A stretch of DNA of 64,000 nucleotides, from NCBI GenBank assembly GCA_951804945.1, contig OX638149.1, positions 83,328,001 to 83,392,000 of the forward strand, in the 5' to 3' direction. The notes below the pieces were generated by a model. The model worked only from the letters and a program-made list of their open reading frames with translations, ran no database searches and had not been told where the DNA came from. Made by a program: the position numbers and the translations under genes. This DNA is from Podarcis cretensis (lineage: Eukaryota). This document shows, in pieces, positions 13,911 through 60,399 of the stretch; within the stretch, counting starts at the first letter, position 1, and every line of letters starts with the position of its first letter.

Positions 13911-14901
13911 CACTCCAGCTATTGTCTTTGCAACCAACTTCTCTGCAAAATAGGAGAGATCCCTAAAGTCATGTTTATCTAGTACTGCAAGCAATCTAAG
14001 GAGTGACAAGGATGACATTTTAGCCATGCAAATGTATGCCACCTCTTCTCACTACAATACCCACCACATAAAGAGAAATTAAGTAGAAAGGTGAGCAGAG
14101 CAGACTACTAAACTAGATGAAACCATTAGTTCCATTGCCCCATGCCAGAGTCAAATGCAAGCAAAATGGATTCTGCATACAGTACAAAAAAAAGTCGAAC
14201 TTCATGCAAGAGGATGACCTGTACTAAGTACATTTTGCATGCAACAAGACAAACTGTGTTGAACAATAGCTGTAACTGGATGAGGCACACACCCTCTGTA
14301 CAAATACTAAGCCAGGGGTTGGGAACCTATGGCTCTCTGGATTAAGTTGAGCTCCAGCTCCCATATTAGGCAGATCGAGCAGCTCTCTAATGAACGCTGG
14401 AGACCATCGTACTCCTGTCTGCTCTGCAGTATTTTTCTAGCAACCTATACGCTGAGGGAAGCAGGAGGTCTACAAAGAGGAAGGTGAGAATCTCTCTTGC
14501 AAGTGCAGGACTGACTTGATCTCAAGTCATTGGGTGAAAAGTCTAAATAAAGGGCCACGACCCCACATCCCTCTCCCGTTTCTCTTACAGAGATACAACC
14601 TCACTCCGCCCCCCAAACACTATTCCCCCTCCCCTGTTTTTCTCCCCACTTTCTGAAGCCCCCCCTTAGCCTGACTTATTCTCTCCCCCTGCACCTGTTT
14701 ACAGAAGCGCAGGGAATGGCCTGCTCCCGCCTTGAAGTCGTTAATGGCACGAGGGAGCTCTTGCTCCTAGCTGCTCCCGAGAGATTCGCGCTAAGATTCC
14801 CACCAGCAGCGCCGACCTGAGCAGGAGCGCGCACGCGCCGAACGGGAGCTGCTGATTGGCCGCCGCCTTCGAGGAGATAAAGCAGAGCCGGGGCTGCTTA
14901 C

Positions 14902-19500: not shown

Positions 19501-20325
19501 TTTTTTTATTCATTCCCCCCCCCCCCAAAAAAAACCGATGTGCGTCCTATGGGCCGGTGCGCCCTATAGGACGAAAAATACGGTATTTTTCAAATGATGG
19601 ACTGATTGATTCTCAGTTAAACATCTGTCATTGAGCTTGAGCTAGTTTAAGAGATTTGAGAACTTAAAGAAGAAAAGTCACTTGATCCAGGGACTGCACA
19701 TATATATTGGCCTATCCCAACCTCTCTTTTTTTAATGATGACTGCTCCTTCTCAGGCTGCTCAGAAAAAGCAATTGAGTTCCAGAAATTCATTCCGATTG
19801 TGCAGATGAAATATAACTGATAGACTTCTACAGGATGGGGTATTCGGGTGCGGAAACAGCCCAGATCCAGTGATCCCTAGATGATGGAGATGTCAGGCGC
19901 CATCCTAGCCCCCAAGCATCTTCACTTGGTCACAAGTGGTCAAAAGCCAACTGCAAGATGCACCTGGCTAATTTTGAACACCGCATAAACAATAAACACA
20001 ACATCAAAAAGAACACGACCAAATCGAACAATTTCCACATAAATCATAAGACACAAAATAAAGCTACAAAAAATTAACAGCAACAACCCCCTCTAAACAA
20101 TACCCCAGCTCAGGATTCTGTTCTGCATCCTCAGCTTTTGTAACTGGAGTCATTCAGGGCCCTGCCCTCCCAGATCAGGTAGAAAAAGGCTTCCAAGGCA
20201 GGGAGCAGGTCTCTGACGGGTTCACATTATGGTCAGTTTATGAAAAACATTCCTGTATTGAGTTCTCACCGGTAATGTCCAGGAATTGCTATCCATGTTG
20301 TAACATTTTCCTGCTCCTGCTCCTA

Positions 20326-20359
<34 letters not shown>

Positions 20360-23300
20360 ACATAATTGGCTGCTGCTTGTGGGGTGGGGAAATGGGCAGT
20401 GCAGTGATGTCACGAGGCAGGAACAAATAGATCTGTGACATCCAATGTAACCTTTCAGCATTAGGCTGCTAGTTGGCAGGATTTTCTAATATATGCGCTT
20501 CCATGACTGAAATTTAACAAGTGGAAGGGCTAAAATTCAGCTTTGACCATTATGCATTGATGTCTAGCAATTGTGTATTAGACATTGGGTTGGATCCATA
20601 CCAAGTTAGCTCAGCTTGGGTCTTGCTGAAATCAGTGGGACTTGGGTTCAGCTAACTTGATCCTGACGCAACCCATAGTATGTGACATACTGTGCATCTT
20701 TGGTTGGTAGGCTTTGTGAAGTCTTAGACTCATTTAATTGTAGAGTTGAAAAGGGACCCTGAGGTCTTTTGATTCTGTGGTTTTGCTTTTGGTGTCAATT
20801 TACAAATATGACATGAAGGAATGCAAATATTAAAACAGTTGCATTTTATTTTATTTTTTATCACTATTGGGACAGAAGAAGAATCAGAAGAAGAAACTTA
20901 AATGTCTTCCCTTTTAAACTTAAATAATTAGTAGGAACACAAACTTCTTCAAAGCTTATACATGCTGCAATTTAAAGAGCACATGAATGTGTTTTTTTCT
21001 GTGGCAGGATCTCGGCACAGCCCAAATTGTTTGAAAGATTGTGTAGTTTAGTGCATTGTGTTATAGCTCAGGTCAGCTTAGGGAAGGAAGAATAAGTTGC
21101 ACATGAATACATACTGGAAGTTGTGCCTGTCAGGACTTCAGTAGTGGCTGATGCCCATTGAGTTTGGTAGGGCAGAGCAAGAAGTCAGAGGCCAAGGGTA
21201 GGTGGAGCCAGAGGCAATGACTAGCAGACTCAAACAGTTAGAGTTTTGTCCCCATTCTCCCTGCTGAGTTCTACAGTGGTGCCTCGCAAGACGAAATTAA
21301 TCCATTCCGAGAGTCTCTTCATCTAGCGGTTTTTTCGTCTTGCGAAGCAAGCCCATTGACGGCTTAGCGGGTTAGCGCTATTAGCGGCTTTTAGCGGATT
21401 AGTGGATAAGCAGATAAGCGGCTTATCGGCCTAGAAAAAGGGGGGGGGGGAGCTCGCAAGACATTTTCATCTTGTGAAGCAAGCCCATAGGATATTCGTT
21501 TTGCGAAGCACCTCCAAAACGGAAAACCCTTTCGTCTAGCGGGTTTTCCGTCTTGCGAGGCATTCGTCTTGCGGGGGCACCACTGTACAAGGGCAACACA
21601 AGAGACTAAAGTGGAGGATGCAGGCAACAAGGGCCACCACCTTGGACCGGATGTAAGAAAGAAGGCATATGTGGTGGGGGAAACACTGGTTGAGGGCAAG
21701 CATAGGCTGCCGGTGCAGTGCTCCAATCTCCCTGCAAACCTGCCTCCATTGTCAGGGCTGGTTCTTCACACAATGCCTAAACTAGTAATTCTGGAGCTTG
21801 ATTAATTTTGTAGTTCATGCTCTTGTTATGCTCTTGTTTTACAAAAGTATAGATAATCAAAAAGAAGCACAATGTGCTACAACATTTTTACTGTAGATTC
21901 CATTGGGCTGGGATGCTTCATTTCCCCTATTACTTCTGTATCTCTACTTCGTAAAGTGCTGTGAAACATGGATGGTTGAATGACTTTTGCCAATTCTTTC
22001 TATTGTCCCTTTTCTTATAGTTTCAAATGAGGTGCCTGAGCATCCCTGTGTGTCTCCTGTCTCAAACCATGTCTATGAGAGAAGGCTGATTGAAAAGTAT
22101 ATTGCAGAGAATGGGACTGATCCAGTGAACAACCAGCCACTGTCTGAAGAGCAACTCATAGATATCAAAGGTGAGGAAGGACAGAAGAGTCAGAGGCGCT
22201 TGAGTCTCCCTTGTGTTTGATAATAGTTGAGTGTGGAGTTGCCAATCTTAGTCTTCACCTTTTAAGACCTTGGGTGGCAGGAAATTCTTGAAACCTGATC
22301 GCTGACTGATAAAGGGTGCTGTGCTTGAACAAATGGTCAGAGTTGATAGAGTCTGACAATACCTGAAGAGCACGACATTAGTTACCTTTGTTCCAGGGTA
22401 TGCTGAAACCAGGATGCTATGAGGTACTGGTCTAGCATATTGCACAACAGGAAAAGCTAAATCAAATATTGATAAGGATAGTCTCTCTGCTTTGCTATTT
22501 TGTTGTCTAATATGACTGTTCCAAACGCATCAGGGCCCGGTGAGGTTATAAATGGGTCTAGATAAAGGAAGGGTTGCTAACAAAAGTATTCGGTGCTTTA
22601 AACCAGGGGTAGGGAGCTTGTGACCCTCCAAATGCTGTTGGACTACTTCTCTTACCATCACTGGCCATGCTGGTTGAGACTGATGGAGTTGGAGTGTAGG
22701 GCCATCTAGAGGGCCACAGCTTACCCACTTTTGCTTTTAACTCAAGAGCAGTCTGCCTACTCGCCTCAGTAACGTCAGCATCTATGTCCTCCCACTTGCC
22801 TTCCCACGTCAGCAAAACTCCCTCTACCCCCAGCTCTTTCTTCTCCTTAGCTTGCTTGTGGTTCCTTCCATCTGTCCCACAATCCCTGTGGCCTTCTGCT
22901 CCCCCCCACAGTTCACTTTTTTGACTTCTCAATGCATGGATGTCATGAGCAATGGATAAAGGCAAATAGGTGGTTGTTGAATTGCAGCAGTTAAAAAAGC
23001 TTGCAAAAGGCATGTGCCTTTTGAACCATTCTTCCAAGCAGCCTTTATTTTAAAGGTGTGTAAGGCAGGTTTGTAAGGATAATAATCGACGGCTCTTTCT
23101 GGAGGTAATGCTTTCTTGTTCCTTTGTAATCCCCAGTTGCCCACCCAATTCGGCCAAAGCCACCATCTGCTACTAGCATTCCAGCCATTCTAAAGGCACT
23201 TCAAGATGAATGGGTAAGTATCTTTAATATATATATATGGGGGGGGGGCTCCTCCTCTGCTTGCTGAGATGATGGAACTGGAAATGTTCTCCTCTGTGTC

Positions 23301-26300
23301 TTAAGGCGTTCCTCCCTGCTTTCAGCCATGCTTAAGAGTGGCAGGAAGCAAGAACGTTCAGGATTGGAAAGTTTTTGGAGGAAGGAGACTTCTAAGCCAG
23401 GAGTAGTTTGCTCCTCAGAAAAAATCAATACAGCATAATGTTTTGGCCAGATATTCAAGAAACTACTCCGGTGTTTAATGCAATATGGCCTAGCTGTTGC
23501 TATGCCAAAGATCAGTTACTATGCTGATGTGCTTCCTTAGGATGCTGTCATGCTGCACAGTTTCACGCTACGCCAGCAGCTGCAAACTACACGTCAGGAA
23601 TTGTCCCATGCACTATACCAGCATGATGCTGCCTGCCGTGTCATTGCCCGTCTCACCAAAGAGGTCACTGCTGCGAGAGAAGGTAAAGACGCAGAAGATT
23701 ATATGTTATTTGGGTGGTGTTCAGGGAAACAGTCCACAGTGCCAGCTTTAACCTGCCAAACCACCTTTTCTCTATCTCTCCCCAGCTTTGGCAACTCTGA
23801 AACCCCAGGCTGGCCTCATCGTTCCCCAGGCTGTACCTTCTTCACAACCCAACGCTGTGGTAAGTCACACACATGTATCGGTCAATAATTCTCTTTGTGC
23901 TCTTTCTTCTCTGGGCTAATCATGCTCTTCATTGTCTTCCTACAGGGTGCTGGTGAACCAATGGACTTAGGAGAGCTGGCTGGAATGACCCCAGAGATTA
24001 TCCAGAAGGTAAGAAATATCCCTGGCTTGCTATTTGCCATCCAGATCATGCTATAGCTTATACAGTTACGATCTCCCAATCTGAGCTCTATAGCTGGCTT
24101 TGTCAGAACATGCCACTTCCACACTGTTGTGCCTTCCCTTTCTACATTACGGCTGCAGTGTCTAACAGGTCAATCAGTTGCAGCTTCATCTGTTCTCCAG
24201 CTTTTCAGGAATCACTGATACACCCTGGCTGTCAGAGGAAGCAGAAAAGAGTGGGCAGACAGATGGAATAGCCTCTTCTCTGTCATGGTGCCATTCCCCA
24301 GCAGCAACAGGCAAAAAGTAGCGTGGGTCAGCAGCATTGTCCCCTGCTTACCCTGCTAGCATACCATGCTTGAAGCTGGCTTCTCCTAATGCTGTTCTCT
24401 TTTTGCAGCTTCAAGACAAAGCCACAGTGCTGACCACGGAGCGTAAAAAGGTGAGTGCCCCTATCTCAATATTTGCTCTACAGGCGGGGAAGCACTTGAG
24501 TTATCTAGGGGTGCTTGCAGTATATTTGTTCTCATGATTGCTGCAAAGGTGCAACTCCCTGTGCTAGGATGCTCCTGTTACAAGGAGTTTAGTTCTATGT
24601 TGTCTTTTTGGCAGAGAGGGAAGACCGTGCCGGAGGAACTGGTGAAGCCGGAAGAACTCAGCAGATACCGGCAGGTGGCTTCACATGTGGTGAGTATGGT
24701 GATCATAATTGATTGGGAAGGCTACCATGAAGGAATCCTCTCATCTAAGCCGAACACTTCCTAGGTTTTACCAAAAATAAAGTTTAGCATTCTCTATCTG
24801 AACAACTCTGCACTAGCTATCCATTGATCTAAGCCAGGGGTAGAGAACCATGACAGGCTACTTTGACAGATGGGCAGGATTCCACTCACCTGTCAATCAC
24901 CTGATGTCAGGTGACAAGCAAGACTTGAAATCACCACTGACCGGTGCTGACTTGAAATCTGCTTTCTGTAGGGGTCACCCAATGCTGGAGGGCATGCTGT
25001 CACCACCTACCATCTGATTTAGGATGACAGCAACCCTTCTTTGCCAATGAACAATTAGGAGTACACTTTAAGGCTCTCTATTGTGAATTGGAAGCTGCAT
25101 CTCTGCCTGCCTCACACCTGATCTCTTATATGCCAGGCTTGGACTGGAGGTCTTCCTTGTCTGCTGGAAGCTTAACCATATTTTGCAACATGCTGGCCTG
25201 GAGTGTGAAGGCTCTGAGCTCTTAGACCTCTGTTGCCTCCTCCAGCCTTTCCAAATTAACAATACTTTGCTGCTTTTACGGCCGAAACCAAACTGGTGTT
25301 GCTCTTTGCTAGTAGCTTCTCTCTTGATTCTGGAACAGCTTCAAGCTCATTTACCATTTGATTGCACAAGGAAAGTACCGTATTTTTCGCTCTATAACAC
25401 GCACCTGACCATAACACGCACATCGTTTTTAGAGGAGGAAAACAAGGGAAAAAACATTCTGAATGAAACAGTGGATGTATCATTTTTGGGCTTCATGCTG
25501 TGGCCACAGACATGTGATCTGATGGTGAATTTGGGGTGACCCAATGCAAAGATCCTGAGTATCCCTGTGGATCCATGCTTTGTAACCACGTTTTTGCACC
25601 ATTGCAGCCCCAGGCAACAGTGGGTGCGTGATTTTTTTGGTGCAGGCTGTAGCCATGGACATGCTATGTGATCTGATGGTGAATTTGGGGTGACCCAATG
25701 CAAAGATCCTGAGAATCCCTGTGGATCCATGCTTTGTAACCACATTTTTGCACCATTGCAGCCCCAGGCAACAGTGGGTGCGTGATTTTTTTGGTGCAGG
25801 CTGTAGCCATGGACATGCTATGTGATCTGATGGTGAATTTGGGGTGACCCAATGCAAAGATCCTGAGAATCCCTGTGGATCCATGCTTTGTAACCACATT
25901 TTTGCACCATTGCAGCCCCAGGCAACAGTGGGTGCGTGATTTTTTTGGTGCAGGCTGTAGCCATGGACATGCTATGTGATCTGATGGTGAATTTGGGGTG
26001 ACCCAATGCAAAGATCCTGAGAATCCCTGTGGATCCATGCTTTGTAACCACATTTTTGCACCATTGCAGCCCCAGGCAACAGTGGGTGCGTGATTTTTTT
26101 GGTGCAGGCTGTAGCCATGGACATGCTATGCGATCTGATGGTGAATTTGGGGTGACCCAATGCAAAGATCATGAGAATCCCTGTGGATCCATGCTTTGTA
26201 ACCACATTTTTGCACCATTGCAGCCCCAGGCAACAGTGGGTGCGTGATTTTTTTTGGTGCAGGTTGTACCCATGGACATGCTATGTGATCTGATGGTGAA

Positions 26301-29300
26301 TTTGGGGTGACCCAATGCAAAGATCCTGAGGATCCATGTGGATCCATGCTTTTTAACCACGTTTTTGCACCATTGCAGCCCCAGGCAACAGTGGGTGCGT
26401 GATTTTGGGGGGGCAGGCTGTAGCCATGGACATGCTATGTGATCTGGTGGTGAATTTGGGGTGACCCAATGCAAAAATCCTGAGGATCCATGTGGACCTA
26501 TGCTTTGTAACCACATTTTAAGTGGGGAGCGAAGGAAAAACAAATAAGGGACATGAGAGGGGTGTGCAGAGAAGCAGCTGGCTAAGAATGCAGGAGAGGG
26601 ATTTAACGGGAGGGAGGAAAGAAAGGCAAAAGTTTCCCCCNNNNNNNNNNNNNNNNNNNNNNNNNNNNNNNNNNNNNNNNNNNNNNNNNNNNNNNNNNNN
26701 NNNNNNNNNNNNNNNNNNNNNNNNNNNNNNNNNNNNNNNNNNNNNNNNNNNNNNNNNNNNNNNNNNNNNNNNNNNNNNNNNNNNNNNNNNNNNNNNNNNN
26801 NNNNNNNNNNNNNNNNNNGCACAGAAGCACAGAGAGGAATTCCCCTCTGCTTGCCTGGAGGGAAGGGGCTTTCCCTGCTCTTTGTTCCGTTTCAGCAAAC
26901 ACAGCAACGAAACGGAGGTGGGTGGGCAGTAAGACCCTGCGGCAGAATGCAGGAAAGCATCCACTTCCTCTTTTCAGTTTTCCCTTCTCCGTGAAGGGCC
27001 GCGATTTGATTTTTGCCTGATTTTTCGGCTCCAGGGACCACACATTCGCTCTATAACACGCACAGACATTTCCCCTTCCTTTTTAGGAGAAAAAATCTGC
27101 GTGTTATAGAGGGAAAAATACGGTAATCGATTTTGTTATTAATACCAGGATCACCACCGTTCTTTCATTACTGTTGCTGTGGGCTTGGAGCCGAGTCTGC
27201 ATATTCCAGTCAAATCATGAGGAAAGATTGCTTGTTCTATCAGGGATACAAACTGGGAAAAGTTTGGGGTCAAGCCAAGTGTTTGCAGACACTCCTCTTG
27301 TATAAGATGAGTCGTTTTGCCTGACTCTTGTTGAGATGAAGCAGTAGGCCCTCTCTCATCCTTTGCACTGAAACGTTAATGTCAACAATGTTGCTTTTGC
27401 ACAGGGACTGCACAGTGCCAGTATTCCTGGCATCCTTGCTCTTGACTTGTGTCCTTCTGACACCAACAAGATCCTCACAGGTATGTTAAGACTTCTGTTT
27501 CAGTTCCTTTCCTGAGTAAAATGTTAGGACAGTTTGAGCCATGGGGTCCTTTGCTCTCTTCAAAAGCCACCTCTTCTCCTTTGGTTCCATGCTTAGGTAT
27601 GGGCAGATCAACCTATTTTCATTCCGGGTTACTTTTGCTTGTGGTTGATCTTGGGTCTACCCTGTCTGGGGTTTTGTAGATTAAAATGAAACTACAAAAA
27701 CATTTCAGATATTATATACATTTGTCCTGCAAAATACTCATTTCTGTATGCTTTCCAATGCATTTCTCCCTAAAAATACTCATTTTTCTGTGAATTTTGT
27801 TTTTGCAATGCATGAGCCCCAAGACAATATGTGCTGAAGGAGTGTAGGGTGCTCTCCTTCACTGGGCCTTTGTGGTCTCTTTGTTTTCCAGGTGGAGCTG
27901 ATAAGAATGTTGTTGTCTTTGACAAGACCTCAGAGCAGATCCTGGCGACACTGAAAGGTCACACCAAGAAGGTCACCAGTGTAGTCTTCCATCCTTCCCA
28001 GGTAAAGACTGTTGTTTGTTGCCTGCCCCATTCCCTCCACCCCACGCCCCTTATATTTATTAAAATATTTAATATAACTTTAGTGTGTTGATGAATTTCC
28101 TCTGCAGTTGCCTGAAACAATTGTATGATCTCCCTTGAGGTCCCCTTATAGATAGAGAATGCACTCCATAGGTCCTCTTGAGCTGATGATTAAGGACACA
28201 ACTGTTCTGAATTCAGTAAACAAAGCTCTTGTTTCAGCCTAACTCTTCGAGCTTTATTTGCTCTCCCCTGCAGGAACTGGTGTTCTCGGCTTCGCCAGAT
28301 GCTACTATCCGGATCTGGTCAGTCCCCAGTGTTTCATGTGTGCAGGTTGTGCGTGCCCATGAGAGTGCCGTGACAGGGCTGAGTCTCCATGCCACAGGCG
28401 ATTACCTACTGAGCTCCTCTGATGACCAGGTGAGATCGAAACCAGAGGTGGTCAGGCCCAGATTGTGTTAACTGCAAAGCTCTTTATGTTACATGACATC
28501 TGCAAAATGTGAAGCTGCACTTGTATATTTGCTTATTAGCTTTATTTTAAACATTTCTAACTCATTTTTTAACATAACAATTCTTCCAAAGTGGTTCACA
28601 CTTTAGAGATAACAATTAATAAAACAATCTAGTTCACAATGAAAAGATACAAACATTGACATTTTTTAAAAAATCCAAAACATAAAACAGTAAGGATTAG
28701 TTAAAGAAAGTTTTCCAGAAGAAACATTTTGCCATATACAAACCCTCCACCTTTCCTCTCTTTCAGTATTGGGCTTTCTCTGACATCCAGACAGGTCGTG
28801 TTCTCACCAAGGTCACAGATGAAACTTCTGGCTGTGGTAGGGGCTCTGCATTTGGTATTTTGGTGAAACTTGCTTGGGAGAGGGGAGAGTCTGCATGTTT
28901 AGTGTGGTCTGGTTTGGCCATAATGTTAAACCGTAGTTTAGTGTTCTGAGAACAAGCATAGCTTTCCTCCAGCCTTGTTCACGCCCCCTCCAGTACAGCC
29001 TCAAGGAGGAATCCAAAAATTGCTGCTTCTAGTTTTTGTGTAACCACAGCTTGCAGTGTTGGCTGAACCTGGACAAACTGAGTTGTCACGACTGTGGTTA
29101 ATGGAAACAAGTTAATATCAAGTAATAGTTTATTTGCTTATTTCAGCTGAGCTTATTTAAGATTAATCACAGTTTAGCATGTTGCACAAACTCTAAACTG
29201 TGGTTAATCTAAACCAGAAGTAGCAGCTTCTAGTCTCCTTATGATTGCACTGGGGAAGAAGGGAGATGAGCCTTGTGCGGAGGGCTAGGCTCATTCTCAT

Positions 29301-31434
29301 AAAGCTGAAACATAGATTAGCATCATTCCTAAGCACAGCTCATGTTTTGATACATGGGTGGGAGAAGGCTGGGTAGGGACTTCATTTTCCCATAGGAATG
29401 GCTTTCTCTCAGCTTTGTGATGATTCACTATCTCCTTTCTCTGCAGCTCTGACCTGTGCCCAGTTTCATCCTGATGGGCTTATTTTTGGGACAGGAACAA
29501 TGGACTCTCAGATTAAGATCTGGGACTTGAAGGTGAGAAAAGGCTTGGAATATTGAGCTTCATGATATCTACTTTAAGGATAGCTGATGATGTTATGTGA
29601 CACACATAGAATATTCCAAAGTGCTTTATAAATGCCGACTCCTTGTCCATGTTACTGAATGATAAATTGCATAAAAGCTAGGCTTGCACAGTCATTTGAG
29701 ATCTCAAAAGCCTGCTCAGCAATAACTTGTAACAGGGCTTTTGGTGTGACTGTCCCAGTTCTGTGGAAGAGCATTCCTGTTGATATATGACAGCCATACG
29801 CTACCTGCACTTTTTGGGAAAAATAGAAGACATTTGTGTTCCAACAGGCTTTCCTAGGTGGATAAATGGGTATTTGCCAGGAGTGTCTACTTGTTAGGGT
29901 TTTAATCTTGTTTTAAATGCACTTGTTGTTTTAACTGCTTTTGAATATATTGTGTATAAATTGCCTTGAGACGGTGGTTTCAAAAGTAATTGATAGACAT
30001 TGATTATAATGGTACTAATATGAGCAAGAAATACTCAAGAGGTGCTACTACTGCCCATTCTAGAGCTCGAACTAGATTTAGAATAGCCAAAGATTCTACT
30101 AGTATCTTCTAGATATCTCCCATAGTTTTTGTTATGTGAATGGTGCCACAGACCGCCTGAGTGGGTTACGCAAACCCTCTGGGGTCCACAGACCACCAGT
30201 TGGGAACCACTGAGACATCTCACACAGATGTCATGTGAAAGTGGTGCTTATTAACATGCTTAAATTTTCTGTACAATTTCAGCAAGAGTCTTCTAGGGCC
30301 CCCTACTGCAAGTTCTCCCACATCAAAAGATTCATTTTAGTTTTGCCACTGAATACTCTTTGGAAGCACTTCATCTTTTCTTTCAGCAACTCTTAGCCTG
30401 TATTGGGGCCCACTATTGAAAGACCAGTTTTAATTCTACCTGAAAGTTGCTATCACTTCCCAAGAGGAGCCAGACTCAAAATGCCATGCAGAAAGTATGC
30501 CACAGGGAGGAAAAACTCACTCTTTTATTCACTGTGCAGGCAGGGAAGGTGTAGAAGCTTTGTATCCTTTGGGAAGACAAGATCAGGCCTAACCTGTCTC
30601 TAACACATACCGACTTGTTTTTCTCAGGAACGGACCAACGTTGCAAACTTCCCAGGACACTCTGGCCCTATTACTAGCATTGCCTTCTCTGAGAATGGGT
30701 ACTACTTGGCCACTGCTGCTGATGACTCCTCTGTCAAACTCTGGGATCTGCGCAAACTGAAGAACTTTAAGACCCTGCAGCTGGACAACAACTTTGAGGT
30801 TTGTGTGACCCTCTCTTGCTCTAGTAGGCCTGTATTCCTTCCCTTTCTTTTCTTGACAGCACTTGGAGTTTTCTCAGGTTCCTCCCCATCATTTTAAAGC
30901 CCAGTGCAACCATTTTCTCTACACTTTTGGCAGCTCTCTGAACCTTGCATAGCTGTTTCCTCTAGTTTGACACACCTCCTTTAAATGGACAGAGGTTGCT
31001 ACTGCCCCAGCCTGAGAGGACTGGGCCCAACTACTTCTGAAGTGGATGTGTTCATCTCAAATACCATTTTTCTCTTTAGGTGAAGTCCCTCATATTTGAC
31101 CAGAGTGGCACCTATTTGGCCCTAGGTGGCACTGATGTCCAAGTCTACATCTGTAAGCAATGGACGGAGGTTCTCCACTTCACAGGTAAGGGGGGTTCTG
31201 GGTCCTGTGTGCCATTCTTGAGGGGCTTTATATTCAGACATTTGTACTGTTGGCCAGTATCACTGTTTGTGGTGTGTGAGGTGACAAAACAATGAAATAA
31301 TTTCTCACTCAACTGTCTTTGTTTCTTTTCCTACAGAGCATAGCGGCCTGACCACAGGAGTGGCCTTTGGGCATCATGCTAAGTTCCTTGCTTCGACAGG
31401 CATGGACAGAAGCCTGAAATTCTACAGTGTGTAG
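16502..31434 (+). CDS. PRPF19: Pre-mRNA-processing factor 19 (U-box/coiled-coil/WD40), 504 aa; exons 16502-16520, 22021-22170, 23137-23213, 23541-23682, 23786-23859, 23946-24008, 24409-24450, 24615-24689, 27405-27480, 27892-28001, 28274-28429, 28767-28836, 29447-29532, 30628-30798, 31080-31185, 31337-31434
   Basis: 16 GT-AG exons sum to 1515 nt in frame. The translation [41 protein letters not shown]...[12 protein letters not shown] is recognisably vertebrate PRP19. Confidence 0.98.
18361..18653. mobile_element. Tc1/mariner-type MITE (family 2), left end clipped
   Basis: Homologous to 21274-21585; ends GGCACCACTG-TA. Confidence 0.8.
19040..19583. repeat. GC-rich 118-bp tandem repeat (~3.7 copies, each with two inverted repeats) ending in a DNA-transposon TIR
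   Basis: Units start at 19040, 19158, 19276 and 19394. The terminus CCCTATAGGACGAAAAATACGG-TA matches the TIR of the 25378-27123 element. Confidence 0.85.
20309..20358. repeat. (CCTGCT)n microsatellite
   Basis: Read directly from the sequence. Confidence 0.9.
21274..21585. mobile_element. Tc1/mariner-type MITE (family 2), full length
   Basis: TA-CAGTGGTGCCTCGCAAGACGAA ... TTCGTCTTGCGGGGGCACCACTG-TA. Confidence 0.88.
25512..26517. repeat. 154-bp tandem repeat, ~6.5 copies
   Basis: ATGTGATCTG(A/G)TGGTGAATT-like unit starts at 25512, 25666, 25820, 25974, 26128, 26283 and 26437. Confidence 0.95.
26641..26818. other. Assembly gap (N run)
   Basis: Run of Ns inside the satellite-bearing element. 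Confidence 1.
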
Positions 31435-33144: not shown

Positions 33145-36100
33145 CTAGAGTTTTGTCACTCTGCTTCTCTTTTTCCAGAGTACGATCACAACAACAAACA
33201 AGATTACACCCACTAAAGGCAGTGCCACCAAGCATATCAGGGCCAGATCTCCACTGGAGCTCATGTCTGTGGAAAAGAAAAGAGGCTTGCACTTATTTGG
33301 CAAGATTTATGTACAACTTAATAAAAAAAGGAATCTTAAGTGGTTTCCATAAAGTGGTATAGATAATTTAAAAATCGCAATTAAAACTCTAAAAACAGTA
33401 ACCATAATAAAAGCAGTAGATTTTTAAAACATACATGATAAAATTACAAGTTCTGAGTAAGCTTGCTCAAACAAAAACATTTTTAGCAGACATCATAAGC
33501 AGTACAATGAAGGGTCTGCCCAATATCAATAGGCAATAAGCACTAGAGAACAGAACATAGGAAGCTGCCATACATAAAGACCGACCATTGGTCCATCCAA
33601 CTCCGTATTGTCTACATTGACTGGCTGCAGTTCTCCAGGGATGCTCTCCCAACCCTACCTGGAGATGCTAGGGTTTGAACCCAGAACCTTCTGCATGCAA
33701 ACAAGCTCTGCTACTGAGCTAGGTCCTTCCCCGGCAAGTACTGCTACATGAAAAAATGTCATGCCAAGAGCAGAATGAACACTATGTGGCACTTGTAAGG
33801 GTGATAGTTACAGATCAAAGCTGGCACATTTGGGGTATGGCAGTCCTTTGCACCTCCTGAAACATTTGTGCCATCCATGACTTCCCTAGCCAAGGACCCA
33901 TGGTATGTTCTATTGGGACAAAGCTAGTAGAGTATACTCTGAATAAAACCACATCTGTGAGACATAGTTTATTATGTGCATGTTCTCAAGAGCTGCCGTG
34001 CTCACGGTAGGGTGCTCACCTGAGCTGCTGTTGCTGCAGCTTGTCAGGAGAAAGCAGCATGGTGACAGCAAATGGTGTGAGTGCACTTTGCTCTTGCCCC
34101 ATGCCCCACTGATAAGCCATGGTGACACTAGTGATGGGAGGGCAGATAAATGCCACGTGCCCTGCCGAGCAGTACTACTCACGAGCTAAAAAGTTGTGAT
34201 ATTGTTAGGAGGACATTGGTAGTCATGTTTATGACTTGTGACGCCCCCCCTCCCCCAAGTTTTAGTTGGCTGCTTCAGGCATAAATCCATACAGAGTTTG
34301 TATCTTACAAAGGACTATATATAAGATGACTGAAATTTAGTGTTGATGGTGAAACTATGTTAATACCTGTTCAAAAATATACAGCATTTTCATCATTTCA
34401 ACTCACTCATTGGTCCCAACCACTGGTGCCAACCACCAATTACCTTTCTTCCATTTGGCTTGTTTATCATGAGTCTGGCTGCTTTCTTGAAAGATCACAC
34501 CTCCATAAGTGCTTACTAGGTCCAAGGATTCTGTCCCATTGCCTGTCTTCAAAAACCGACGACTTCCTAAAAAGGGAGTTGGAGAAAGAAACCAGGTATA
34601 AAGAAACCAGTAGGCCACCTTGTGCCATATACAATTTTGAAGGTAAGAAGGAAAAGGAGCACAGCATTGATCATATTGTTAGAGCTGGAAGCTTGTAGGA
34701 GGGCTATGCCCTAGAAACCCATTTATACACCCAATGACTAGAGACAGATACAACCCTTTATGGAAAAAAAAGTATTTGCATTCTGAATGCTTTACCCCAG
34801 TAAAGAACCATAGCCAGACCCCTACACATCAGGACTGACGTTTTATTGGGGGGGGGGGGTTGCTGAGCCCCAGCATCACATATCAGCAGGCCAGCACTGC
34901 TAAGTGGGAAGAGATGGATCTTCATTTGAGGTTAGGAGTCAGAGCACCTGGTTGTTCGAGTGTCCTTGTATATGGGCTGTTAGAATTGGTGGTATGTGCC
35001 AGCAGCCTAGTTTCAAGGTTTGTGAAGAGAGGCAATGTGCTGTTAAAAATAGCACATAAGAGCCACTTGAACAGGGAGTGTGTTTATCAGGTACCTATTC
35101 ATTCATACTTTGTCTCTAGTTGCAGCTCATCAGCTCTTAGTGCTCTGCATTTATGCCCCCAATTCCAAGTTCAGTACCAAGATCTATTTTTGTTTACTAG
35201 TCATGGGCAGTAAGTGCCATTTGTGCATGCTGGAAATACTGGTGGCAGCCTATCTGGATTCAAATAAGCCTTTTACGGTATGACAGCAAAGCCATTTGGA
35301 CTTACTTGCAGCCACTGGCATTTGACACGTGTTCCTGCAGGGCTGCAGGTGAGAGGGGTGGCAAACAGACAGACTGCAGAAGAGGTACACCTAGGAAAGA
35401 CATTGCATTAGATAAGCTTGCTAGCAGAGGAGTCAACCCAAGTCGTCCAAGATATTTTAACAAAATCCTCATGGTCATTGACGTAAACATTTACAAAGTA
35501 CATTATCTCCTTACAGTTAAAGCATAATTCTAAATGTGCATTAATGGGAGTGGGAGGGGAACCTCTGGCCCACGGACCTAATCCTCCTAAGCTTGCCAAG
35601 CCTCCTAGTTTTGCCCCACTGCCATGCCCACCTGCCGCTCACCTGACAAGTGAGGGACATGTAAAACATGCTGCAAAGGAACATTAAGAGTGTTCTCCTG
35701 ACAGTTCCTTTGCCAGCATGGCTTGCATTCAAGTAGAATTAAATTCAGCACCATTTCAATTTGGCACCTAATGCAAGCCATGCTGCCTAGGGTCAGATCC
35801 ACTCAGGGACTCTTGACTGCAGCTTACAGGGGGATCAGATATCTACCCAGAGCAAGATAGCTTGCATTTTGAGATAAATTTAAACAGCTGAATTCAGCAT
35901 TCATCCTACTTCTGCTCATGTGCCACAGAGCACCTGACTGAAGCTCATGGACCACTTAAGGTCTGCAGACCACAATTTCGGAGCCCTTACTCGAGCTCAG
36001 CTGCAGTAGGAATTCTGTCTCTTACCAATCCATCCAGCACCATGTAATTGGCAGAATCCACAAATGTAAATGTAGCAATGGTGAAACGCTGGTAATGGTC

Positions 36101-39100: not shown

Positions 39101-42100
39101 CAAAAATGTTTGGGGGGGGGTCATACTGCTTCATTTGCAATCATTGCATGCCCTGTAAATTCCTGTTGAAATCCCGGGTCTCTCTTCATACCATAAATGT
39201 TATGAGTTTTGTTGTTGCTTCATAGGCCCCTCCAGACAGCAATAATGTGGTAACGTCAGGGAAGCACCACAAAGCAACATGAAACCATCACTAGTGCACT
39301 ATTGTGTCAAGAACATGGTACAAAATACACCCGTAATAAAACACTAGCCTGGAGGAGCCTTTGAGCAGTACTATACAGTGGTACCTCTGGATGCGAATGG
39401 GATCCGTTCCGGAGCCCCATTCGCATCCAGAAGCGAGCGCAACCCGCGTCCGCAGGTGCACGGGTCGCTGCTTCCGCGCATGTGCGTGACGTCATTTTGA
39501 CCGCATGCGCGAGCGGCGAAGCCTGGAAGTAACACACTCCATTACTTTTGGGTCACTGCAGCACACAACCCGAAAATACTTATCCCGAAGCTACTTCAAC
39601 CCGAGGTATGACTGTATAGTATCCTGGTTCGTGCTGCTTTGAACTGTGCTGGATACATATTCATCCTGCTAGCCTCTGGATTCTCAGCAGTAGCCAGCAC
39701 AGGACAGAATCCCAGTGTGGCTTTTAGTGTCAGGTGTATTGAAGTCAGCATGGCTGGGAGTTCATCTGTAGGAGTTTTTAAACCATGATACTGGGGGGGA
39801 GTAGTTAGAGCGCTTTGCTCCTCCCCCCAGCCAACCTGCTGTGCTACCTGGAGCTACGCCATGATTTCGCTTAGCATGACATCTAAATGCAGGCTCATGG
39901 TTTCTCTTGATCTAGAGAAGACACAAGCTGTAGCCAAGGTTTGTTCCTGGCTTGCTGCCTGTGGGTTGGGGCAAACCATGAGCTCTGGTTCAGTTGCAGT
40001 GCTAAGCCAAAAGCCATGATTTAGTAGCAGCAGAACAACTGGGGAAGGAGTGAATTGGCTGCATTTTTTTTTTTTTTTACTGTGAACAACTGCTTATACA
40101 TCCATGCTTAGCCATTGTTTGGTTTAGCATTATGTGCAAACCGGGCTATTATTTCCTTAGTACAAGCAATAAGTCCTCTTGGTAAATGAATCATTACCAT
40201 GGTTCCCAGCCTAATTTACCACCAGCACGCCAGACAATTAGCAGGAAACTAAAAGAAACAAAGTATTTTGCCCTTTACCTGTGTTGCCATAGTAACATGG
40301 AGTAGTTTGATCCCTCTCATCATAACAGCATCCAGTCTGGTAACATTCAGCTTGTCCTAGTGAACCTGCACAGGGAATCTTTCCAGATGAAACCTGGCAC
40401 TGCTCCTGGGTTAGAGGAGAACCTGGGAGGGCAAGAAAAGAGCTACAGCGTTATCTGGAGCATGATAAAGTATGCCCTATTAGGACATGTTAAGCCATGT
40501 TAAGCCAGATTTTAAAATAAGCAATAGCTTGATGTGAATGAGTAGTGGGTCAGTCCCCGCAATGAACAAGTGGGAAGCCAAGAACAATTTTTTGTGTGTC
40601 CAATGAATCATTAAAGGAAGTAGAATGCTCTTTTTAAAGGAACTAAAGGTCTCTCCTAGAATCTTATCAGATATTCAGAGGCAGAAATAGATCACATTCT
40701 TCATATACTTGAATCCATGCTTCATCCGTGCCATGTGGTATAAATATAATACAGTTTCCCTGACACTCCATATGCGGAATTAGTATGCAACACTAAATCA
40801 AGAAAGTCGATGATAAATCAATAGTCTGAACTTTATGCAGAACAACTATTACTGTATTCACACAATACCCATCAGTATTATTTACTTAGTTCAGAATGCT
40901 TCTGTTTTACTTAACAGCACAGATCACAGAGTTGTACTTAATGATAACATCGAAAAATGATCACATACCTATACTGTAGAGGCCAGAAGGGTGCATTAGG
41001 CCAGGATAGAGAGGAGGCACTGGTTGCACAAGGCCAGGCTGAGGCTGAGGCAGCGGGTGCAATTGGCCGGGCTGAGGCTGAGGCTGAGGCTGAGGCAGTG
41101 GGCGCACTTGGCCGGGCTGAGGCTGAGGCTGAGGCTGAGGCAGCGGGTGCACTAGGCTGGGCTGAGGCTGAGGCTGAGGCAGCGGGTGCACTTGGCCGGG
41201 CTGAGGCTGAGGCAGCGGGTGCACTAGGCCGGGCTGAGGCTGAGGCAGCGGGCGCACTTGGCCGGGCTGAGGCTGAGGCTGAGGCAGCGGGTGCACTTGG
41301 CCGGGCTGAGGCTGAGGCAGCGGGCGCACTAGGCCAGGCTGAGGCTGAGGCAGCGGGAGCACTAGGCCGGGCTGAGGCTGAGGTTGAGGCTGAGGCAGCG
41401 GGCGCACTAGGCCGGGCTGAGGCTGAGGCTGAGGCAGCGGGCGCACTAGGCCGGGCTGAGGTTGAGGCTGAGGGCGCACTAGGCCGGGCTGAGGCTGAGG
41501 CAGCGGGCGCACTTGGCCGGGCTGAGGCTGAGGCTGAGGCAGCGGGTGCACTTGGCCGGGCTGAGGCTGAGGCAGCGGGCGCACTAGGCCAGGCTGAGGC
41601 TGAGGCAGCGGGAGCACTAGGCCGGGCTGAGGCTGAGGTTGAGGCTGAGGCAGCGGGCGCACTAGGCCGGGCTGAGGCTGAGGCTGAGGCAGCGGGCGCA
41701 CTAGGCCGGGCTGAGGCTGAGGCTGAGGGCGCACTAGGCCGGGCTGAGGCTGAGGTTGAGGCAGGGGGCGCACTTGGCCAGGTGGAGGCAGCGGGCGCAC
41801 TAGGCCGGGCTGAGGTAGTGGGTGCACTTGGCCAGGCTGAGGCTGAGGCAGCGGGTGCACTTGGCCGGGCTGAGGCTGAGGCAGCGGGTGCACTAGGCCG
41901 GGCTGAGGCTGAGGCAGGGGGCGCACTTGGCCGGGCTGAGGCTGAGGCAGGGGGCGCACTTGGCCGGGCTGAGGCTGAGGCTGAGGCAGCGGGTGCACTA
42001 GGCCGGGCTGAGGCTGAGGTTGAGGTAGTGGGTGCACTTGGCCGGGCTGAGGCAGCGGGTGCACTAGGCCGGGCTGAGGCTGAGGCTGAGGTAGTGGGTG

Positions 42101-45100
42101 CACTTGGCCGGGCTGAGGCCGAGGCTGAGGCAGTGGGTGCCCTTGGCCGGGCTGAGGCTGGGGGCGCACTAGGCCGGGCTGAGGCTGAGGCAGGGGGCGC
42201 ACTTGGCTGGGCTGAGGCTGAGGCAGCGGGTGCACTAGGCCGGGCTGAGGCTGAGGTAGTGGGTGCACTTGGCCGGGCTGAGGCTGAGGCAGCGGGTGCA
42301 CTTGGCCGGGCTGAGGCTGAGGCAGGGGGCGCACTAGGCCGGGCTGAGGCTGAGGCTGAGGTAGTGGGTGCACTTGGCCGGGCTGAGGCTGAGGCTGAGG
42401 CTGAGGCAGCGGGTGCACTTGGCCGGGCTGAGGCTGAGGCAGGGGGCGCACTTGGCCGGGCTGGGGCTGGGGCTGGGGCTGGGGCTGGGGCTGTGGCCAT
42501 GGGTGCACTTGGCCAGGCAGCGGGCGCACTTGGCCGGGCTGAGGCTGAGGCAGCGGGCGCACTAGGCCGGGCTGAGGCTGAGGCAGTGGGCGCACTTGGC
42601 CGGGCTGAGGCTGAGGCAGCGGGTGCACTTGGCCGGGCTGAGGCTGAGGTAGTGGGTGCACTTGGCCGGGCTGAGGCTGAGGCAGCGGGTGCACTTGGCC
42701 GGGCTGAGGCTGAGGCAGGGGGCGCACTAGGCCGGGCTGAGGCTGAGGCTGAGGTAGTGGGTGCACTTGGCCGGGCTGAGGCTGAGGCTGAGGCTGAGGC
42801 AGCGGGTGCACTTGGCCGGGCTGAGGCTGAGGCAGGGGGCGCACTTGGCCGGGCTGAGGCAGCGGGCGCACTGGGACGGGCTGAGGCTGAGGCTGAGGCA
42901 GCGGGTGCACTTGGCCGGGCTGGGGCTGGGGCTGGGGCTGGGGCTGGGGCTGTGGCCATGGGTGCACTTGGCCAGGCAGCGGGCGCACTTGGCCGGGCTG
43001 AGGCTGAGGCAGCGGGCGCACTAGGCCGGGCTGAGGCTGAGGCAGTGGGCGCACTTGGCCGGGCTGAGGCAACGGGCGCACTTCACCAGGCTGAGGCTGT
43101 GGCCATGGGTGCACTAGACCAGGCTGAGGCTGTACTTTGCTGGGCTGAGGCTGAGGCTGAGGCTGAGGCTGAGGCAGCGGGCGCACTAGGCTGGGCTGAG
43201 GCTGAGGCAGCGGGCGCACTAGGCCGGGCTGAGGCTGAGGCAGCGGGCGCACTAGGCCGGACTGAGGCTGAGGCAGCGGGCGCACTAGGCCGGGCTGAGG
43301 CTGAGGCAGCGGGTGCACTTGGCCGGGCTGAGGCTGAGGCTGAGGCTGAGGCAGCGGGTGCACTTGGCCAGGATGAGGCTGAGGCAGCGGGTGCACTTGG
43401 CTGGGCTGAGGCTGAGGCTGAGGCTGAGGCAGCGGGTGCACTTGGCCGGGCTGAGGCTGAGGCAGCGGGCGCACTAGGCCGGGCTGAGGCTGAGGCAGTG
43501 GGTGCACTAGGCCGGGCTGAGGCTGAGGCAGTGGGCGCACTTGGCCAGGCTGAGGTTGAGGGAGCGGGCGCACTTGGCCAGGCTGAGGCTGAGGCAGCGG
43601 GTGCACTAGGCCGGGCTGAGGCTGAGGCAGCGGGCGCACTAGGCCGGGCTGAGGCTGAGGCAGGGGGCGCACTAGGCCGGGCTGAGGCTGAGGCAGGGGG
43701 CGCACTTGGCCAGGCTGAGGTTGAGGCAGGGGGCGCACTAGGCCGGGCTGAGGCTGAGGCTGAGGCAGCGGGTGCACTTGGCCAGGATGAGGCTGAGGCA
43801 GCGGGTGCACTTGGCCGGGCTGAGGCTGAGGCAGCGGGCGCACTAGGCCGGGCTGAGGCTGAGGCAGGGGGCGCACTTGGCCAGGCTGAGGTTGAGGCAG
43901 GGGGCGCACTAGGCCGGGCTGAGGCTGAGGCTGAGGCAGCGGGTGCACTTGGCCGGGCTGAGGCTGAGGCAGCGGGTGCACTTGGCCGGGCTGAGGCTGA
44001 GGCTGAGGCAGCGGGTGCACTTGGCCGGGCTGAGGCTGAGGCTGAGGCTGAGGCAGTGGGTGCACTTGGCCGGGCTGAGGCTGAGGCAGCGGGAGCACTA
44101 GGCCGGGCTGAGGCTGAGGCAGTGGGTGCACTTGGCCGGGCTGAGGCAGCGGGCGCACTAGGCCGGGCTGAGGCTGAGGTAGTGGGTGCACTTGGCCGGG
44201 CTGAGGCTGAAGCAGCGGGCGCACTAGGCCGGGCTGAGGCTGAGGCTGAGGCAGTGGGTGCACTTGGCCAGGCTGAGGCTGAGGCAGCGGGCGCACTAAG
44301 CCGGGCTGAGGCTGAGGCAGTGGGCGCACTTCACCAGGCTGAGGCTGTGGCCATGGGTGCACTTGGCCAGGCTGAGGCAGCGGGCGCACTTGGCCGGGCT
44401 GAGGCTGAGGCAGGGGGCGCACTTGGCCAGGCTGAGGCAGCGGGTGCACTAGACCAGGCTGAGGCTGTGGGCGCACTTGGCCGGGCTGAGGCCATGGGTG
44501 CACTATGCCAGGCTGGGGCTGTGGTCGTACTATGCCAGGCTGGGGCTCTGGGTGTATCAGGCCAGGCACTGGATGCTCTAAACCAGGCTGGGGCTTAGGC
44601 TGGGGCTGCGGGCGCAACTGGCCAGGCTGAGGCTGTGGGCGCACTATGCCAGGCTGGGGCTCTGGGCGTATTAGGCCAGGCACTGGACGCTCTCGGTCAG
44701 GCTGGGGCTGAGGTTGTGGGTGCACCTGGCTGGGCCTAGGCTGAGGCAGCGGGAACTCTAGGCCAGGCTGGGAATGAGGCAGAGGGCGCACCACACCAGG
44801 CTGGGGCTGAGGCACATGACGCATGTTGTCCTCTGGTGCTGGGACATATTCTTGTGGCTTGGGGCATATTATGTTGACATCATGGGAGACAACAACTCTT
44901 CTGTTGCTTGTTAGTTCTTCTATCCGGACTTTCAAGTTATTGCTGTTATCCTGCAAGATACATTGAAACAGAATGTTATAGAGTAGTTGCAAGTTTCTGT
45001 CACATTGATGAGTCAGGATGGATATAGAATACTGAGGTTTTAGAGTCAAATACCAATGTACCTGTTACAAGGCATTATCATAGTCTTGCTATGACATATG

Positions 45101-48100
45101 AATCTTGTTTTGATAATAAATATAATAAATACCGACCAAGCTAGTGGACTGGATTGCTAGGTACCAGGTGAGAAGCATCCTCCCAAAACATCTAAAAGCT
45201 CATCTTAAATGTCTATACAACAGAGCTAATTTTCCTGACAGAGGATTTCTGCTGCAGTAGTTGGCCAAGATCGTGGGCAGGATACAACTAAGCGGTGTGC
45301 ATGGCATGAGGTCCAATTACTCAACAGGACTTTCCCTGCTCTCCTTCCCCTCGTGGACCTTGTTTCCCTTGGGCTTCACTGAGTTCTACACCCTGGTTTT
45401 AGGCTGTTCAGTTCTCTACTGCACATGTTGCTATACTTTGGAAGACAATTCTACCCTTTCTTATACTTGGACTTTCTGCATAGCCAGCTATTTGCAAAAT
45501 CACTAAAGCAAAAATCAGAAGTGACTAGGAAACCTGGTGAACCTGTGCCTCTCAAATGTTGCTAGGTTCCAGAGGTAGCTATAAATGTAAAAACTAAACC
45601 CAGCCAGCATGTCTGATGGAAATTGGCAGTCGGGTAACAGGCTCCCTACCCCCAAGTTAGGCCTATTACCTGCCTTACAGCAAGGTTTCCTGAAATTACG
45701 TAATTAGAAGAGTGGGCGACTCAAATCCTTGCACAGTCAAGAAGTTCATGGGCTGACCCTGGGCCAATCACTCCCTCTCAACCTAAAGTACCTTACAGGA
45801 CTGTTGGAAGAACAGAAGGAGCTGGGAAGATCAGCAGCCCCTTTCACATGTGCATCACATGTGAAGGGGACTCATACAGAACAGGGCTACTTCTCTGCCT
45901 TTGGAGTCCATCTGCCCAAGCCGAACATCTGCAAGCAAAAGCTTACATTGCTCTTTTCCCGAGTCCTAGAACCCTAAAGAACCTTTTAACGAGGGTGAAA
46001 GAGAGCGCAAAATATGGTCTGAAGCTCAACATCAAAAAAAACGAAGATCATGGCCACTGGTCCCATCACCTCCTGGCGAATAGAAGGGGAAGAAATGGAG
46101 GCAGTGAGAGATTTTACTTTCCTGGGCTCCATGATCACGGCAGATGGTGACAGCAGTCACGAAATTAAAAGACGCCTGCTCCTTGGGAGAAAGGCAATGG
46201 CAAACCTAGACAGTGTCTTAAAAAGCAGAGACATCACCCTGCCAACAAAGGTCCATATTGTTAAAGCCATGGTTTTCCCAGTAGTGATGTATGGAAGTGA
46301 GAGCTGTACCATCAAGAAGGCTGATCGCCAAATAATTGATGCTTTTGAACTATGGTGCTGGAGGAGACTCTTGAGAGTCCCATGGACTGCAAGAAGATCA
46401 AACCTCTCCATTCTTAAGGAAATCAGCCCTGAGTGCTCACTGGAAGGACAGATCGTGAAGCTGAGACTCCAATACTTTGGCCACCTCATGAGAAGAGAAG
46501 ACTCCCTGGAAAAGACCCTGATGTTGGGAAAGATGGAGGGCACAAGGAGAAGGGGACAACAGAGGACGAGATGGTTGGACAGTGTTCTCGAAGCTACAAA
46601 CATGAGTCTGACCAAATTGCGGGAGGCAGTGGAAGACAGGAGTGCCTGGCGTGCTCTGGTCCATGGGGTCACGAAGAGTTGGACACAACTAAATGACTAA
46701 ACAACAACAGAACCCTAAACATGCTCTCAGAAGGGCTGCTTATACAATTCCCCTGAGGTCTTAAGGGCACAATCCAGATGTCCATATAAAATTATATTGC
46801 GTTATTCAGGATGACAATGTTGGCCATGCAGTATAGGGTTTCCAGGGAAGCCTGCAACACAAAATCCAGAAGAGCCTCACCTTATTTAGTACGTGGCAGC
46901 CACCGTAGCCAGCAGAGAAAGCAATAGCCCCATTAGATGTGATCCAGTGGCGGCAGATTGAGCAATTTGAAACTTCAAAGGCTATCCCAAACTCATCTGT
47001 TGATGAGAGGTTAATGCGTTAGCCACGGAGAGATGCAACAAGAAAACTTATTTGCATTGGTTGAGACTTCTAAAGTTCTTCAGATGTGTGTCCCTTATTA
47101 TCAGTTAGTGCCTGAACCACATAGAAAGAGTGTGAACTTTTCACTTGCTTTGAAATCCAATAATAAGGCCAATTCAAGAGCTATGCCTCCAACAACAGGT
47201 GCTAGACCAGGCACCCCCAAACTCAGCCCTCCAGCTTTTTTGGGACTGCAACTCCCATCATCCCTAGCTAACAGAACCAGTGGTCAGGGATGATGGGAAC
47301 TGTAGTTCCCAAACATTTGGATGGCAGGTTCGGGGATGCCTGTGCTAGACCAACATGCTCATTACTGCTGCAATTATTTCAGTGATTATTCCCCATAGGA
47401 CCAAGGAAAAACATTTTGCAATAGTCAGTTAATATGCCTGTTAACTTGAGAGGGGGCTCTGCTGGAATCCATATGTGCCAACAATTGTAGGCTTAATCAG
47501 ATGCCAGACTAAGGCCACATTCACACCATACATTTAAAGCAGAATCATACTGCTTCCCATCCTCCAAAGACGACTAGGAACTGTAATTAAGTGTGCTGAG
47601 AGTTGTTTGGAGACCCTTCCAGACCTACAGTTCACAGAGTAGTTGATCAATCCCTCTTCACAGAGAACTCTGGAAATTTTAACTCTGGGGGGACTAGGGG
47701 GTACCTTAACAACTCTACATGCCCTTAAACTACAGCTCCCAGGATTCTTTGGGGGAAGAAGCCATGGCTGTTTAAAGTGGCATGCTGCTTCTTTAAATGG
47801 GGAGTGCAGATAGAGCCTAAATTATACTGTGAAGTCTCCTAATTTTTTTAACAAGTAGCACAATTGTCTTAAAACAAGCTCTTTAATAAAGCCTAGTTTG
47901 GGGAGAATGTTTGCAGTTCTTTGAGTTTCTATTCTCGCCACCACACCCTCCAAGCCTTGGCTCTAACCACACGTACAGGAACTGCAACTCTCCCTGTGGC
48001 CTCTCCAGTTTCACAGCTTTGAGCATTTTCTTCAACTAAACTAAGCCTTCTCATTCGAGATATGGATATCCAAAACCATGCAAGAGAAAAGCTGCCATTG

Positions 48101-59717: not shown

Positions 59718-60399
59718 GGCAGCAACCTGAGGAAAGTGAATCAGTGACATTTCCAGTAAGTTTGGGAACTGTAAGAACGAATGAAGGAGGTGCTCAGCTT
59801 CCCTACTTCCCCTAGGGCAATTCTTGCCCTTAACCTCTGATTGAAGCTCTCTCCTTTATATCCTGCCTTTCCTCTTTTACACACACACTTTTATCCTCTG
59901 AGCTCTGTGAGGTAGATTGGGATGAGCGTTAGCAACTGGCTGAAGATAATTCGGTGAGCTTTATGGCTGAGGAGAAAATTAAAACTCCACTTTGTCCTAG
60001 TTCAAGGTTGGTAGTCGACCAAGTTTTACACCAGAGCTTTCCAAACGGTGTGTTGCAACACATGAGTGCATTGTCAGCTACAGTGTGCGGGTGTGTCGTT
60101 TTAACGCTCCCCACACTCCTCCTGGGGCTGGTAAAGGGTGCAGGCAGCCCACTGGATTGCTAGTAAAACTGAATTACCGTGCTGCAAAATGATGCATATC
60201 TAAAAAGTGTATCGCCAACATGAAAAGTTTGGAAAGCTCTGTTTTAGACTGAGCAGGCCCACTTAAATTAATGGACATGACTAAGTTAGCTTGATTAATT
60301 TCAGTACATCTACTTTGAGTAAAACTCAGCTGACACAGGCTTTTAACTAAGTCCTTTTCCTCCTTGGAGGTGAAACTCCTCCATGCACTGAACGGTTTG

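Follow-up and report, generated by a model that had tools for sequence, protein, structure and literature searches.

A single-copy lizard ZP1 gene with a long proline/glutamine repeat, a furin site and a transmembrane-coding last exon

The closest described counterparts of the ZP1 gene considered here are the ZP1 proteins of other reptiles, birds, mammals and teleosts. Squamate and turtle gene models (Podarcis lilfordi P0003, Varanus P0041, Liasis P0037, Anolis P0009 and Caretta P0076) show the same domain order with a proline/glutamine (P/Q) repeat, furin site, EHP and transmembrane (TM) segment, the P. lilfordi model being 98% identical over 255 columns. Avian ZP1 (chicken ZP1/ZPB1, quail P0176 and emu P0136) likewise combines a ZP-N1 domain, bearing a cross-linking cysteine and a sequon, with a long P/Q-rich repeat, a trefoil, a ZP module, a furin site and EHP. 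Unlike the lizard protein, the avian models carry no TM, and their linkers, mostly 314-482 aa, are less proline-rich; avian ZP1 is made in the liver (PMC6626044). Mammalian ZP1 (platypus P0184 and rodent and lagomorph models) again has ZP-N1, trefoil, ZP module, furin site, EHP, TM and 12 exons, but differs in its Pro-rich linker of 58-109 aa, which lacks tandem P/Q units. In teleosts the liver-made ZP1/ZPB proteins (choriogenin H, stickleback ZP1) also place a P/Q-rich region, described in fish as a transglutaminase cross-link site, before the trefoil and ZP module, whereas stickleback ZP1, liver-made, has lost both ZP-N1 and TM (PMC8362008). The layout of the present gene is thus already represented in public gene models and the reptilian P/Q repeat is already in print (PMC6626044). 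In the literature covered, which left out most subscription papers and book chapters, there was no study mapping repeat and TM across reptiles or locating the synthesis of lizard ZP1.

The gene occupies the minus strand of the window, the 64,000-nucleotide stretch of the Podarcis cretensis genome analysed here, whose coordinates are used throughout. Our model spans 49123-33145 in 12 exons with GT-AG borders at all 11 introns, and its 5511-nt frame encodes 1836 aa closed by one stop. The protein comprises, in order, ZP-N1, the P/Q repeat (1267 aa), trefoil, ZP module, RSRR, an EHP-like patch and a single C-terminal TM; Pfam matches on single exons follow the order ZP1/4 Ig-like, trefoil, ZP-N and ZP-C, while the signal peptide was called from hydropathy alone. 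The features are:

49211, near the ZP1 start: TATA-like TATATAA
48937..49123, minus strand: exon 1, with the ATG, a predicted signal peptide and the start of ZP-N1 (PF22821 below cut-off on this exon alone)
46881..46996, minus strand: exon 2, ZP-N1 core (PF22821, E 8.8e-11), with sequon N73-C-S and an extra cysteine, Cys77 (codon 46955-46953)
40969..44950, minus strand: exon 3, 3982 nt and open throughout, end of ZP-N1 followed by the P/Q repeat
40279..40422, minus strand: exon 4, trefoil (PF00088, E 7e-6)
37679-37495, 37406-37309 and 36678-36551, minus strand: exons 5-7, ZP-N and linker (PF23344 on exon 5)
36460-36271, 36176-36026 and 35390-35306, minus strand: exons 8-10, ZP-C (PF00100, E 8e-18 on exon 8)
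34444..34566, minus strand: exon 11, end of RSRR (to 34556), sequon N1765 and the EHP-like patch (34522-34490)
33145..33266, minus strand: coding part of exon 12, predicted TM helix (33246-33175), short basic tail and TAG
33122-33117 and 33103, minus strand: poly(A) signal ATTAAA and poly(A) site, the latter from a poly(A) loose end in read run X9

This gene is an ordinary single-copy lizard ortholog of ZP1. A tree built from the trefoil and ZP module, in which five ZP1 rows kept untrimmed C-termini, separates the ZP1 clade from eight ZP4 rows at 100/100 and places our protein within squamates (98/97) as the sister of P. lilfordi P0003. A second, caecilian-rooted tree of 23 fully trimmed rows agrees, the placement of platypus relative to sauropsids being unsettled in both. 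A search of the lizard's own genome returned one ZP1 locus, the next matches being two ZP4-like genes (C4:30.79-30.80 Mb and C18:1.655-1.668 Mb) and one ZPAX-like gene; ZP2 was not recognised in the inspected part of the 34 ZP-C matches. Since that search found the intron-bearing locus alone, a processed DNA copy is unlikely. The ZP-N1 motif N73-C-S-I-C77 corresponds to the N65/C66 region of chicken ZP1, in line with the sequon and cross-linking cysteine (chicken C66) described for chicken, human and mouse (PMC6626044). With Anolis ZP1 as the query, the ZP module matched PDB 8BQU, and Anolis ZP1 was aligned with PDB 6GF6 for comparison of ZP-N1.

The P/Q repeat covers aa 146-1412 (44818-41018), a stretch of 1267 aa with 36.7% Pro and 24.1% Gln (60.8% together), and lies between ZP-N1 and the trefoil as in avian-type ZP1. 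It is built of about 93 copies of a unit PG(Q/L)V(R/H)P(LPQ)(PQ)n and, set against the transglutaminase cross-linking described in fish, offers 305 Gln but 2 Lys; exact internal duplications of 241 nt and 226 nt are present within exon 3. The linker as a whole measures 1307 aa, against 703 aa in Varanus, the next longest among the retrieved and measured ZP1 models, a comparison drawn from homolog searches that took in proteins of up to 2000 and 1563 aa and from assemblies of which the short-read ones may collapse repeats. Among these retrieved orthologs its repeat, as predicted, is the longest. The strand opposite the repeat is open for 1216 codons (40948-44595), which is likely a by-product of the repeat.

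The 3' end carries the features of a membrane-anchored precursor. RSRR (aa 1756-1759) is the sole R-X-K/R-R in the 1836 residues, and the codon of its first Arg is split between the last A of exon 10 (35306) and the GA opening exon 11 (34566-34565); the EHP-like patch of 11 residues follows at aa 1771-1781. Exon 11 ends at 34444 in phase 1 with the donor gtaatt, and among eight candidate acceptors in intron 11 and downstream that of 33266-33145 is the strongest, with 14 of 15 positions pyrimidines. Read in frame, this last exon starts with DMSSSG and ends with RVTKL before the stop; its Kyte-Doolittle 19-mer maximum is 3.33, compared with 1.46 for the remaining protein. A six-frame scan of the window yielded four stop-free 19-mers at or above 2.8, the three besides exon 12 being low-complexity Leu/Ile runs, and a near-identical last exon closes the P. 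lilfordi model.

Transcript evidence came from four read runs, one from each of four studies, out of 23 listed (16 small-share runs were guessed to be RNA); all four behave as RNA, with GT-AG junctions and poly(A). Junctions of exons 5-7 occur in three to four of the four runs and those of exons 8-10 in every one, and among the pieces listed for run X1 a single 1478-nt contig contains exons 5, 8, 9, 11 and 12. The poly(A) end of X9 at 33103 lies 14 nt past the ATTAAA. A reading of the DNA alone, made earlier, had placed RSRR across the exon 10/11 junction, proposed a TM-coding last exon and held that this repeat-bearing ZP1 keeps both furin site and anchor. The contigs agree on each count: exons 10 and 11 are joined in 4/4 runs, as are 34444 and 33266 across a 1177-nt GT-AG intron, and the one strongly hydrophobic stretch falls in exon 12, so that furin site, EHP and TM are all present in the spliced mRNA. 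On the 5' side a loose end of X9 at 37682 continues into exon 4, and a contig of X2 extends 450 nt upstream of exon 5; since this exceeds the 144 nt of exon 4, the two observations together suggest that the repeat exon is joined. The junctions cover exons 5-12; the presence of repeat and TM in one mRNA is suggested by the gene model, the homolog models and these contig offsets.

How far this combination extends across tetrapods was assessed in 263 proteins from three homolog searches (the best 120 rows of each), among ZP1-labelled models, by asking for a Kyte-Doolittle 19-mer of at least 2.2 after a furin-like site and EHP. A TM was recovered in 12/13 squamate, 39/46 turtle and 2/2 caecilian models and in 0/50 of birds; these counts are of gene predictions, the turtle rows include many near-duplicates, and since kin share states the models are not independent. 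Excluded beforehand, as not reaching or not matching furin site plus EHP, were 7 of 20 squamate, 25 of 71 turtle and 13 of 63 bird models and all four from tuatara. Because the EHP pattern missed several mammalian tails, its TM counts for mammals were not used. Repeat and TM occur in a single protein in eight squamate models (Pogona, Paroedura, Anolis, Phrynosoma, Liasis, Varanus, Pseudonaja and Notechis) and in many turtle models. Bird proteins end 26-35 aa past the furin site, about 9 residues after EHP, against 77 aa in the lizard. Mammals including platypus have a TM with linkers of 58-109 aa, and caecilians a TM with short Thr/Ser/Pro linkers, in both cases without tandem P/Q units.

These models uphold the earlier proposal that presence of the repeat does not go hand in hand with loss of the TM. 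The sequence-only reading had also taken the gene as a blend of bird-like and mammal-like features; that part does not hold, as repeat plus TM is the common squamate and turtle state and birds are the derived exception. Given a TM in squamates, turtles, caecilians and mammals, its absence from bird models, and a repeat in sauropsids, it is likely, from this comparison of predicted proteins, that the TM is the ancestral condition of tetrapod ZP1, that sauropsids acquired the tandem P/Q repeat on their stem and that the lineage leading to birds subsequently dropped the TM. For the amniote egg coat this would place repeat gain (sauropsids) before TM loss (birds), making the two changes separable. 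Individual copies in lineages where ZP1 is tandemly duplicated probably lost the TM later as well.

Several such lineages were encountered. In Alligator mississippiensis, the model P0121 (1122 aa) fuses two tandem ZP1 copies: copy 1 ends with a furin-like site, EHP and TM, while copy 2 is bird-like (RARRS), is modelled without EHP or TM and clusters with birds (100/95 and 100/96). Bird ZP1 may thus descend from copy 2, although a duplication confined to crocodilians is not rejected (p-AU 0.107); no further crocodilian ZP1 model was present among the best 120 of 468 matches. Tandem ZP1/4 duplications in alligators are reported in PMC6262864, whose accessible text makes no mention of TM or liver. 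Several tandem ZP1 copies also appear in turtles (P0002, P0001, Emydura and Pelodiscus models) and perhaps in Eublepharis and tuatara, as against one here. In turtles (P0077 from Chelonoidis, P0094 from Chelonia, P0099 from Natator, and P0092), one ZP1 copy ends 36 aa past the furin site and is TM-less. Just past EHP, the tail can be read as the TM-bearing paralog in a shifted frame, with up to 12 of 13 residues compatible (500 shuffles: mean 4.5, maximum 8), and this copy may represent an independent TM loss or an assembly error.

Taken together, we favor, at a probability of roughly two in three, a single ZP1 gene whose furin, EHP-like and TM exons lie in the spliced transcript and whose product is an egg-coat precursor anchored in the membrane, ancestral in type for reptiles and synthesised by the ovarian follicle. 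Membrane-bound ZP precursors are reported to be cut at the CFCS, which frees the polymerisation-blocking EHP (bioRxiv 2023.06.21.544075); ZP1 and ZP3 co-assemble, with N-terminal disulphides and contacts between repeats binding the filaments into bundles (PMC4475693). By analogy, the precursor would be a type I membrane protein from which a furin-like cut at RSRR would release the EHP/TM propeptide, its ZP module would co-polymerise with ZP3, and Cys77 of ZP-N1, predicted from chicken C66, would cross-link filaments. The P/Q repeat would act as a long spacer bundling filaments through self-association, as reported for chicken, and the linker of about 1300 aa would make this spacer, which separates the cross-linking head from the filament core, unusually long.

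This explanation is weakest on where the protein is made, with the ovary being the probable source on comparative grounds; the sequence-only reading likewise proposed an ovarian precursor and, with it, a repeat that would be independent of hepatic synthesis. The liver-made ZP1s of chicken and stickleback are TM-less, which we count for the ovary in the lizard; in stickleback TM loss accompanies liver synthesis (PMC8362008), and in the hatchling ovary of the Chinese alligator ZP1 mRNA is up (log2FC 1.41 and 1.56, in two of the three ZP1 rows of Table S4, copy unspecified; PMC12918031). The promoter holds three E-boxes against 3.1 expected and no oocyte signature, and a scan for E-box, ERE, HNF, FOXA, CEBP and NOBOX sites stayed at chance level save for a weak excess of ERE-like sites with two mismatches. 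ZP1 was not found in the tables of one supplement each of PMC9203151 and PMC8382678, nor in the main text and 12 of 25 supplements (two in part) of PMC13717216; the accessible text of PMC8398935 held nothing on reptile ZP1, and that of PMC12860763 and PMC10535126 nothing informative. With single-copy squamate ZP1 one could cleanly test the rule by which the follicle supplies TM-anchored ZP proteins and the liver TM-less ones.

The strongest competitor, which we regard as unlikely though deserving of weight, is that ZP1 is made mainly in the estrogen-induced, vitellogenic liver as a TM-anchored, giant-repeat precursor shed to the blood, hepatic synthesis thus predating avian TM loss and the anchor being dropped repeatedly later. 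If so, hepatic egg-coat synthesis would be ancestral to sauropsids, with the anchor lost in birds, one alligator copy and the frameshifted turtle copies. The liver-made ZP1s of birds and stickleback do carry a long P/Q repeat, and the contig depth of X9 over the TM-bearing exons, 680-1720 times that of the three remaining runs, would suit a bulk secretory tissue no less than an ovary, depth being a poor measure of expression; in itself this excess hints at tissue- or stage-restricted expression. Further, eight ERE-like sites with two mismatches lie in 10.5 kb against 3.75 expected, a number reached in 2 of 100 mononucleotide shuffles, but the excess is weak and some sites resemble, by eye, repeat-element sequence. 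Against the liver also stand the lack of EREs at 0-1 mismatch close to the gene start and of HNF1, HNF4, FOXA and CEBP consensus sites in 1.1 kb, and the missing TM of liver-made ZP1s (PMC4475693, PMC8362008). A cut at RSRR would moreover free EHP, from which early polymerisation would be expected (going by bioRxiv 2023.06.21.544075).

Much less probable is a two-isoform arrangement, with the TM form in the ovary and a TM-less form, read through at the exon 11 donor, in the liver. Such read-through would add an open 13-aa tail and a stop, AATAAA is present at 33973 within intron 11, and bird ZP1 ends at roughly this point. Yet the intron-11 contig of X9 has a depth of about 6 against 24,437 at the spliced junction (0.02%), though contigs drop rare forms and vitellogenic liver may be unsampled, and no abundant TM-less form was seen, all four runs being spliced and no loose end at 34444 being among those listed. 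The reading of exon 33266-33145 as a chance hydrophobic frame of a ZP1 that ends TM-less like chicken, for which some homolog models stopping after exon 11 (e.g. Laticauda P0075) might speak, is refuted by the 34444/33266 junction, joined in 4/4 runs and with poly(A) behind it in X9, and by conservation of the tail in 12 squamate genera.

The neighborhood fits ZP1 synteny. Plus-strand exons at 21984-31292, which we take to be PRPF19-like, converge on the 3' end of ZP1, and a minus-strand gene of the BRI3BP/TMEM109 family at 11000-14048 (Pfam match on exon 11000-11446) is presumably TMEM109, the order ZP1-PRPF19-TMEM109 being also that of human. About 6 kb upstream of ZP1 a BAAT/acyl-CoA thioesterase-like gene (PF04775, PF08840) occupies 55519-59855 on the minus strand. 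Elsewhere in this genome, a GDF9-like gene and LEAP2 share one strand (C2:56.247-56.272 Mb), separated by 21 kb with LINE pieces, where a crude motif scan recognised no UQCRQ exon, and a stretch that we presume, from motifs, to be vitronectin/SEBOX-like was located. Back in the window, two tandem-repeat arrays (25395-26280 and 18890-19631) are visible as repeating open frames, the first of them adjoining a run of N at 26641-26818.
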